A DNA stretch of 12,489 bases from a virus, in the UHGV virus genome UHGV-0192751; one strand, written 5' to 3'. The translations under genes and the position numbers were made by a program. Shown here one piece after another: positions 9,493-10,922 of the stretch (positions within the stretch are counted from its first letter, which is position 1; the number at the start of each line of letters is the position of its first letter). The notes below the pieces were generated by a model. The model ran no database searches. It saw only the letters and a list, made by a program, of their open reading frames with translations, and was not told where the DNA came from.

Positions 9493-10922
9493 TGGCAACA
9501 AACAACTTTAAACCGTTCGCGACAGCGGCAAATGCTAACGTGACGGCCCAGGCTGACTGGGAAGCGCTTCCGGCTCTACTCTCTGGCTTCATGGCAGGAA
9601 AAGCATCCAGTGCGCAGGTAAACAAAGCCATTCGACAGGCCAGCTTTATTGCGGCAGCACTGGCACAGTACACGGCCAACAAAAGCGGGCTGGACGTGCT
9701 TGATGATGGTGATCTGAACGGGTTTATCTCCAAAATGGGGACCGCTTTTGGGAAGGATTTCCAGGCACTTGATGCCACGCTGACGGCATTGGCTGGGCTC
9801 GCAACCGGTGCAAATAAACTCCCGTATTTCACTGGAAATGATACTGCAGCTTTGACCGACCTCACTCAGGTAGGCCGAGACATTATCGGTAAAAGCACTA
9901 TTGCCGACATTCTCACATACCTTGGCTTATCAGATGCTTTTCTAATAAAAGATAAATATCTTTCTGCAAGCCTGAATCTCAACACTCTAGGGGGTGATGG
10001 CAAATATGGTATTTATGCTCAGCCTGTAACAAATAACGCCAGTTTATCAAAAAATTATCCTACTCAGGAGGCAGGGAGTTTACTGGTTACACCCGCAGCG
10101 AATAACGGAATGCAGATTTACACAACGCTCAGCGGAAATGTATGGTCAAGAACCTCCCTTGATAACACCAACACACAATGGAGTTCGTGGGTAAGACCTG
10201 GTTTTAAAACCTTAGATAAAAACATAGATTTGAACTATCTGGGCGGAGTTGATAAATATGGTTTTTATGGTCAATCAGTAAGCAATGATGCAACGCCAGA
10301 AAATAACTATCCGGTGAAGGAAGCCGGAACACTCCTGGTGTCGCCAGCGGCATACAATGGACTACAGGTATATATCACTCTCAGTGGCTTAATTTGGTCA
10401 AGGCACTCCCTGGATAGTACAAATACCAACTGGAGTCAGTGGGTTCGACAGGCATTAAAAAGTGAACTAGATGACGGGCTTGCTCTCAAATTCGATTCAT
10501 CGTCACTTTCAACGACTGGGAAAGCATTAGTAGCAAAATCGACAGTTGCTGATATGCGAACCTACCTTCAACTCTTTTCAGCAGCACAGCGTGATGTGGG
10601 GACCGGGGCTAATCAGATACCGGATATGAATGCCTTCTCGGGAAGCATTGTTTCAAAAGGTTATCAAAAGTTTCCGGGCGGCCTAATTATTCAGTGGGGA
10701 ATAAATAATGCGTCTGTAGGTGGGACGTCAGGTAATGGTGAAGATGTTTCCTATGCCATTCCGTTTCCTAATGGATGCCTGTCACTCACTGCGACATTTG
10801 ATAATGGCGGTCCTGTCATACCTGCCGCTGCTGCATCTTTTGTAGACAATGTTTATTTTAAGCTCCGCTGCTCAGAGGCAAGCGGATCGTATATTTTTCG
10901 CTGGATTGCACTGGGATTCTGA
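9474..10922 (+). CDS. Tail fibre protein with mosaic architecture
   Basis: The stretch LDATLTALAGLATGANKLPYFTGNDTAALTDLTQVGRDIIGKSTIADILTYLGL matches, from memory, the conserved segment of P2 H-type fibres. After it come two tandem domains of about 75 aa and a C-terminal tip containing QKFPGGLIIQWG. An alternative start at ATG 9492 overlaps the upstream stop (TAATG). Confidence 0.8.
   Translation: MGDNTLMATNNFKPFATAANANVTAQADWEALPALLSGFMAGKASSAQVNKAIRQASFIAAALAQYTANKSGLDVLDDGDLNGFISKMGTAFGKDFQALDATLTALAGLATGANKLPYFTGNDTAALTDLTQVGRDIIGKSTIADILTYLGLSDAFLIKDKYLSASLNLNTLGGDGKYGIYAQPVTNNASLSKNYPTQEAGSLLVTPAANNGMQIYTTLSGNVWSRTSLDNTNTQWSSWVRPGFKTLDKNIDLNYLGGVDKYGFYGQSVSNDATPENNYPVKEAGTLLVSPAAYNGLQVYITLSGLIWSRHSLDSTNTNWSQWVRQALKSELDDGLALKFDSSSLSTTGKALVAKSTVADMRTYLQLFSAAQRDVGTGANQIPDMNAFSGSIVSKGYQKFPGGLIIQWGINNASVGGTSGNGEDVSYAIPFPNGCLSLTATFDNGGPVIPAAAASFVDNVYFKLRCSEASGSYIFRWIALGF
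9972..10196 (+). repeat. Tail fibre internal domain repeat, copy 1 (protein-level tandem duplication)
   Basis: Residues 167-241, LNLNTLGGDGKYGIYAQPV...NYPTQEAGSLLVTPAANNGMQIYTTLSGNVWSRTSLDNTNTQWSSWVR, align with copy 2. Confidence 0.6.
10230..10448 (+). repeat. Tail fibre internal domain repeat, copy 2
   Basis: Residues 253-325, LNYLGGVDKYGFYGQSV...NYPVKEAGTLLVSPAAYNGLQVYITLSGLIWSRHSLDSTNTNWSQWVR. Roughly 60% identical to copy 1 at the protein level by eye; the DNA has diverged. Confidence 0.6.

Follow-up and report, generated by a model that had tools for sequence, protein, structure and literature searches.

Tail-fibre blocks that are shared by unrelated phages, and the role of crossover sites as their seams, were described in 1992–94 for P1, p15B, Mu and P2, as recounted in passages of PMC3945230. 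The genes of P1 run in the order S constant part, cixR, Sv-U / U'-Sv', cixL and cin, with the serine invertase adjacent to the fibre module, as it is in the DNA analysed here. A prophage of Escherichia coli strain 44 (NZ_CM132959.1, L001) has a module that consists of fibre and tfa, of tfa' and fibre-C' on the other strand, and of an intact recombinase gene, and its only long inverted repeat is the 28-nucleotide (nt) sequence CATTCTCACATACCTTGGTCTGGGAGAA (3409–3436 paired with 5075–5102). The present analysis concerns UHGV virus genome UHGV-0192751, a stretch of 12,489 nt (the window) that holds the tail and baseplate genes of a prophage with a contractile tail and whose nearest relatives are E. 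coli prophages (97–98% DNA identity; L010). Its tail-fibre gene (9492–10922, plus strand) contains a conserved block (9762–9929, plus strand; residues 97–152, QALDATLTALAGL...ILTYLGL) with which the constant (Sc-like) part of the fibre ends. We found that this block ends in a predicted crossover site for an invertase of the Din family (Hin/Gin/Cin/Pin) and that the distal cassettes are joined at this site.

The predicted site (9910–9935, plus strand) has a 12-2-12 layout, with the left half-site TTCTCACATACC (9910–9921), the core dinucleotide TT (9922–9923) and the right half-site GGCTTATCAGAT (9924–9935), and it encodes (I)LTYLGLSD. Comparison with the annotated P2, Mu and P1 records, which were used for both fibres and sites, and with strain 44 showed that 9910–9935 lines up base for base with P1 cixL and cixR, with both boundaries of the Mu G segment and with the inverted pair of strain 44. 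All of these sites consist of 12-base-pair (bp) half-sites around a 2-bp core, and the annotated P1 crossover point sits in the YLGL codons. Scanning with the consensus TTNTCNNAAACCWWGGTTTNNGANAA, which has 20 specified positions and recovers all six known sites, returned position 9910 as the sole site in the window, matching at 16 of the 20 positions, a score that was reached in 3 of 200 shuffles. The window contained no second site with at least 15 of 20 matches, and neither did the 17-kb locus (L010) from the nearest relative; a search of both strands with the left half-site TTCTCNCANACC, one mismatch being allowed, found 9910 alone. Among six loci with homologous blocks, 43 of the 48 third-codon positions upstream of the site vary, as against none of the five within the 16-nt sequence TTCTCACATACCTTGG; constraint there thus acts on the DNA itself and not on the protein alone.

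Similarity to P2 H, P1 S and lambda Stf indicates that the block is a widely shared fibre module. The initial annotation, made from the DNA letters alone, had recognized it at 9765–9929 and had described it as common to P2 H, Mu S, P1 S and the lambdoid side fibres. Translation of that segment gives ALDATLTALAGLATGANKLPYFTGNDTAALTDLTQVGRDIIGKSTIADILTYLGL, which is the peptide quoted there with one extra leading residue (A), and the kinship holds for P2 H, P1 S and lambda Stf but not for Mu S. In BLASTP searches, residues 257–383 of P2 H matched the window fibre with 43% identity (E 2e-21) and P1 S matched it at E 4e-25, with near-identity across QPLDATLTALAGLATGANKLPYFTG. A tblastn search with the block matched 91 phage records, including lambda stf (orf-314; 68% identity over 38 residues, E 2e-11), the S genes of P1, P7 and D6 and the H genes of P2 and Wphi. 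Mu is not among the listed matches of that search, Mu S had no BLASTP match to the fibre below E = 1, and the sole overlap is the NLGL(QETV) encoded at the gix site. The block also matches many PHROG fibre families, at varied positions of their profiles, and its DNA is conserved among many fibres at 65–94% identity. Plasmids account for 115 of the 205 matches to the block in complete E. coli genomes; the block-bearing plasmids among the matches listed are 92–94 kb long, a size typical of P1-like phage-plasmids.

Breakpoints cluster at the end of the block, in agreement with the earlier proposal that distal modules are exchanged at this element. Protein homologues of the proximal part lose their similarity to the window fibre at residues 151–155 in 97 of 104 cases (93%), and in 66 of these exactly after L152. 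At the DNA level, similarity to strain 44, to E. coli PK8277 and to Yersinia phage YP3 stops at 9925–9929. Matches to the block were found in 201 E. coli records; all 40 among the matches listed stop at 9928–9936, and none of these 40 has the distal cassette of the window. The same boundary was seen from the distal side. A prophage of Citrobacter freundii (L007) has a fibre whose N-terminus is unrelated to that of the window and whose block DNA is 65–70% identical; mismatches are dense up to 9909 and absent from 9910 to 10838 (100% identity over 929 nt), two more occur up to 10989, and they become dense again inside tfa. This shared tract behind a different proximal fibre bears out the suggestion that the distal part was horizontally acquired. 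In the P2-like prophages L013 and L015 the match to the window likewise begins exactly at 9910. Overall, the window cassette follows ...YLGL or ...NLGL in P2-like, Mu-like (L021) and two further E217-like (L007, L020) prophages and in one other context (L019), so that at least five kinds of proximal fibre precede it, with the junction always directly after LGL.

Two versions of each half-site were found, TTCTCACATACC and TTCTCCAAAACC on the left and GGCTTATCAGAT and GGCTTGTCAGAT on the right, and all four combinations occur, which places the exchange within 9919–9928, an interval of ∼ 10 nt that holds the core dinucleotide. An exchange across the conserved linker as a whole, the expectation under homologous recombination, is not what was found: it is confined to these ∼ 10 nt within a 26-bp site at the last codons of the block. 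The right-hand ends of the exchanged tracts are spread over ∼ 10892 (L015), ∼ 10990 (L007), ∼ 11380 (L007 and L013), 11860 (L017) and 11968 (L015), and they look like the products of ordinary homologous recombination among related cassettes. Pattern scanning of genome contigs (one genome per species) for the right half-site with the start of the cassette gave five chance matches in unrelated metagenome-assembled genomes; this collection evidently does not hold the cassette. Separately, E. coli PK8277 (L002, 1931–5017) has a degraded copy of the same fibre region in which the proximal fibre is truncated soon after the site, an IS1 element precedes the DUF2612 gene and the far side holds a recombinase gene on the opposite strand.

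The base composition of the fibre gene changes in the same region. The G+C content is 0.523 over 9492–9923 versus 0.439 over 9924–10922, and that of third codon positions drops from 0.53 in the proximal part to 0.36 in the distal part. The distal value is below that of every 999-nt window upstream, the minimum there being 0.445. The shift downstream of the junction, which the initial annotation had described as visibly AT-rich DNA, is thus real but modest. Change-point analysis placed it at ∼ 9811, inside the block and ∼ 100 nt before the junction, rather than at 9923, and composition alone therefore cannot locate the boundary.

Downstream of the fibre and chaperone genes, the window appears to preserve the remains of an invertible switch. 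At 2 kb downstream of the site, the window ends within a Pin-like serine DNA invertase gene (11973–12489, plus strand; Pfam Resolvase, E 1e-43; PHROG DNA invertase, E 5e-66) that has become a pseudogene. Where the strain 44 copy, which is intact, begins with ATG, this gene has ATA, and the loss of 2 nt near 12359 puts it out of frame ahead of the DNA-binding domain. In the E. coli relative L010 (98% identical) the gene is implied to be in the same condition. Homology of the window to strain 44 resumes at 11949, downstream of the position of the right-hand site of strain 44. Between tfa and the pin-like gene there is no alternative fibre end or chaperone on the opposite strand, only a small AT-rich open reading frame (ORF) encoding 117 residues (11449–11802, minus strand; 102 from an internal Met), located where an inverted alternative cassette would be and where strain 44 has tfa' and fibre-C'. 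With one site, no inverted cassette and an invertase pseudogene, the switch is dead in the window, and a once invertible fibre is now frozen in one form. The identity of the site, its link to the pin-like pseudogene (11973–12489) and the loss of the inverted cassette had all been missed by the initial annotation.

This small ORF has a G+C content of ∼ 0.41 and follows the same tfa in the P2-like prophage L015, in L010 and in L017. It had no match in PHROGs, NCBIfam or PADLOC, only a sub-threshold one (YjcQ) in Pfam, and no similarity to fibre or Tfa proteins; it is possibly a moron carried along with the cassette.

Taken together, the block is very probably the end of an Sc-like part whose last codons, with the next four, overlie a Din crossover site at which cassettes are exchanged. 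In intact relatives this site pairs with an inverted copy beside an invertase gene, and inversion would swap one distal cassette (fibre tip plus assembly chaperone) for another, thereby changing the host range. The same site is also the seam at which unrelated phages have exchanged their distal cassettes, and the cassette of the window, in which two pyocin-type knobs are followed by a gp53-like foot and by the start of tfa, has come to stand behind varied proximal fibres after LGL. In the window the switch has since decayed, leaving the left site alone, with the inverted cassette gone and the invertase reduced to a pseudogene. Several observations weigh against this account. The right half-site of the window is off-consensus at three specified positions. 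The loci that were compared are not known to be direct parents, so that a small number of old events with later spread could in principle have produced the four half-site combinations. On the right, the exchanged tracts end (∼ 10990 in tfa, ∼ 11380, 11860 and 11968) at no recognizable site. Finally, an invertase adjoins the cassette in none of the eight contexts examined and that of the window itself is dead, so that any catalysis by an invertase would have been in trans or in the past.

How the exchanges were catalysed is a matter on which the data are about evenly balanced between an invertase acting in trans and short-homology recombination seeded by the conserved site. Exchange by an invertase in trans was reportedly proposed by Sandmeier in 1994; the literature consulted calls this mechanism only probable, and no direct demonstration of it is reported there. 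It fits the ∼ 10-nt exchange interval and the free assortment of half-sites, since catalysis in trans predicts four half-site combinations within ∼ 10 nt, as seen. Short-homology recombination agrees with right ends that look homologous and with a cassette that has no invertase next to it, and the same junction would result if the 16 invariant bases of the site seeded it; this weaker form of homologous exchange is folded into the explanation given above. De Paepe et al., citing Sandmeier 1994, considered invertase catalysis most probable for stf genes (PMC3945230), and Arber noted that Cin uses secondary crossover sites, which leads to gene fusions (PMC4270481). More tentatively, and with the balance somewhat against it, orphan sites such as that of the window could still be live targets that the invertases of co-resident prophages recombine in trans with the sites of other phages. 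The tip cassette (right half-site, knobs, foot, 5' tfa and sometimes the reverse ORF) would then be a mobile unit without an invertase of its own that hops between P2-like, Mu-like and E217-like myoviruses.

A different explanation would make the block no more than a conserved linker within which homologous recombination of the RecA, Red or RecET type crosses over, the invertase site being uninvolved. In its favour, the DNA of the block is conserved among many fibres (65–94%), the right ends of the tracts inside tfa look homologous, the prophage of one relative (L012) has a Rac-like recE gene, and Rad52-like recombinases have been described as making stf/tfa mosaics by relaxed homologous recombination (De Paepe et al.; PMC3945230). 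Crossovers of this kind should be scattered over the block, but 93% of the breakpoints lie in its last residues; DNA tracts begin at 9910 in three independent contexts, and the four half-site combinations limit the exchange to ∼ 10 nt. Moreover, the P2-like and Mu-like carriers have the site only (...QNLGL, ...SNLGL), with no block upstream, and thus no block homology in which to recombine. We therefore regard this explanation as unlikely. Even less credit is due to the notion of a mere protein-domain boundary, with illegitimate recombination occurring anywhere, selection keeping the joins at a permissive hinge (LGL) and the resemblance to a crossover site being incidental. It is true that the fold changes at the junction, from a helical shaft segment to a knob, and that LGL-like motifs precede other modules as well (LQL before the tip; LGLGSAATR in relatives). 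Protein constraint, however, does not explain why synonymous positions are invariant in the 16-nt core, nor does a hinge account for the dyad symmetry of the site in relatives, for the inverted pair beside the intact invertase of strain 44 or for the agreement, base for base, with cix and gix sites defined by experiment; this option is very improbable.

The distal (Sv-like) cassette appears to resemble R-type pyocin fibres, with two probable knobs and a gp53-like foot, as judged partly from structural models. Knob 1 (9930–10202, plus strand) and knob 2 (10203–10478, plus strand) are identical at 49 of 81 residues (60%), which marks knob 2 as an old tandem duplicate of knob 1, and source annotations give homologues the name 'pyocin knob domain-containing protein'. 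For the fibre as a whole, the AlphaFold monomer was poor (predicted local distance difference test score, pLDDT, of 60.6), and only local Foldseek matches were used, nothing being concluded about the structure of the block. The knob region, with a model pLDDT of 50–65, matched the R1 and R2 pyocin fibres 6CL5 and 6CL6 at E ∼ 1e-12. In E. coli relatives (P0001/P0002, L010–L012; L010 8592–8596) a clean 252-nt deletion (10088–10339) between the repeats fuses the two knobs into a single hybrid one; it has no flanking mismatches on either side, which makes the two-knob form ancestral. The C-terminal gp53-like foot (10578–10922, plus strand), the probable receptor-binding tip, matches Pfam Gp53-like_C (PF21882; residues 399–481, E 2e-14), is modelled with a pLDDT of 80–95, and gave Foldseek matches to Acinetobacter phage AP22 gp53 (4MTM) and to the R1 pyocin foot (6CXB).

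The linker before the foot repeats the C-terminal half of the block in a degenerate form (10500–10574, plus strand; residues 343–367, ...GKALVAKSTVADMRTYLQL). The initial annotation had noted this motif, GKALVAKSTVADMRTYLQL at 10518–10574, ahead of the tip, and its relationship to the block withstood a shuffle test: the local alignment of residues 128–152 with residues 343–367 scores 60, which 1 of 2000 shuffles reached. Some relatives (P0072) have a full second block in this place, before a gp53-like tip. The mismatches of L017 to the window are dense as far as 10562 and near zero over 10563–11365, with the change at the YLQL codons that end the motif. For the at least two acquired modules proposed for the distal fibre, the second junction, at motif 2, is supported by a single lineage, L017 (10563). 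Whether motif 2 could be a second crossover site, by analogy with the multi-site Min system of p15B, was also considered; its DNA matches 8 of the 20 consensus positions and it was rejected as a present-day site.

The fibre is followed by the gene of a tail-fibre assembly protein (10925–11353, plus strand), a Tfa/gpU-like chaperone (Pfam Caudo_TAP, E 2e-23). Its first ∼ 65 nt (10925–10989) are AT-rich (G+C 0.37) and lie inside the L007 identity tract, beyond which identity falls to ∼ 80% for the remainder of tfa; the chaperone N-terminus is therefore transferred together with the fibre tip. Just after the tfa stop codon, the sequence GGAACCTTTGGGAGAA (11356–11371) loosely resembles part of the crossover site. 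It is kept in L007 and L013 as GGAACCTTTGATAGAA and GGAACCTTTGAAAGAA, respectively, and both loci lose similarity to the window ∼ 10 nt further on (∼ 11380). As a vestigial site it was rejected: the spacing of its half-sites is unsuitable and the search with the left half-site had found 9910 alone. A G+C-rich hairpin, GCCCGGC ATG GCCGGGC, at 11373–11389 may be a terminator, with no T run directly behind it.

Upstream of the fibre, the window encodes a Baseplate_J protein (7616–8815) and a DUF2612/Wedge1 protein (8812–9492). The program-made fibre ORF spans 9474–10922 and includes 9765–9929; its assignment follows from the ORF list, from matches to PHROG tail-fibre families and from the Pfam Gp53-like_C domain. 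The start is probably the ATG at 9492 and not 9474, because homologues begin with MATNNFKPF and this ATG shares 1 nt with the stop codon of the upstream DUF2612 gene; the RefSeq annotation of relatives also puts the start at 9492. An exact-match look-up of the whole fibre protein returned no record, a PDB sequence search with it gave nothing at E ≤ 0.01, and NCBIfam searches with the fibre, Tfa and the reverse ORF had no matches. Most of 9000–12489 was covered by no complete E. coli genome in the collection searched.

These results account for exactly where and why the fibre of the window is mosaic. They also provide, at the level of single bases, a rule by which host-range swaps could be predicted or engineered, namely to join after LGL at the core of the site and to carry along ∼ 65 nt of the chaperone gene, and they reveal a single tip cassette that circulates between Escherichia and Citrobacter prophages of at least three myovirus types. 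The early-1990s picture is confirmed rather than changed, and the window is a clean further example of it, in another myovirus type and with an R-pyocin-like tip.

Among the described systems, the C segment and Cin of P1 (with P7 and D6) share with the window the block at the end of the S constant part (QPLDATLTALAGLATGANKLPYFTG...VIQYLGL), the location of the cixR crossover in the YLGL codons and the 12-2-12 layout with a TT core (TTATCCAATACC TT GGTTTAAGAGAA). Unlike P1, the window has a single site and a dead invertase and lacks an inverted Sv'/U' set; neither its proximal fibre part nor its baseplate genes (Baseplate_J and DUF2612/Wedge1) are P1-like, and its distal cassette is pyocin-knob/gp53-like rather than P1/Mu Sv-like. 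The strain 44 prophage has the same baseplate genes, a proximal fibre with 97% protein identity to residue 152, an identical left half-site and core and a homologous invertase (87% DNA identity). It differs in that both inverted sites (3411 and 5075) persist, together with a pair of tfa genes and an alternative C-terminus for the fibre; apart from the gp53-like foot, its distal cassettes bear no relation to the knob cassette of the window.

P2 gene H, which has no invertase, was reportedly analysed by Haggard-Ljungquist et al. in 1992. It has the block in common with the window fibre (43% identity over 129 residues) and a gix-like relic at ...EYLGLQETV (TTATCGAATATC TC GGTTTACAGGAA), that is, an orphan site in a frozen fibre. 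In P2, however, the block lies in the middle of the protein (residues 325–383 of 669), there is no invertase remnant and the distal part is Mu/P1 Sv-like. The Mu G segment and Gin show the same logic of a tip-plus-chaperone cassette, with a site at the Sc/Sv boundary that encodes NLGL, although Mu Sc is without the conserved block and the core is TC, not TT. The R-type pyocin fibres (6CL5 and 6CL6) and AP22 gp53 (4MTM) resemble the cassette, whose architecture would likewise be two knobs and then a lectin-like foot (Foldseek E 1e-12 and 3.5e-7), a likeness that has no counterpart in a sequence-level match to any PDB chain and for which the knob model is of low confidence.

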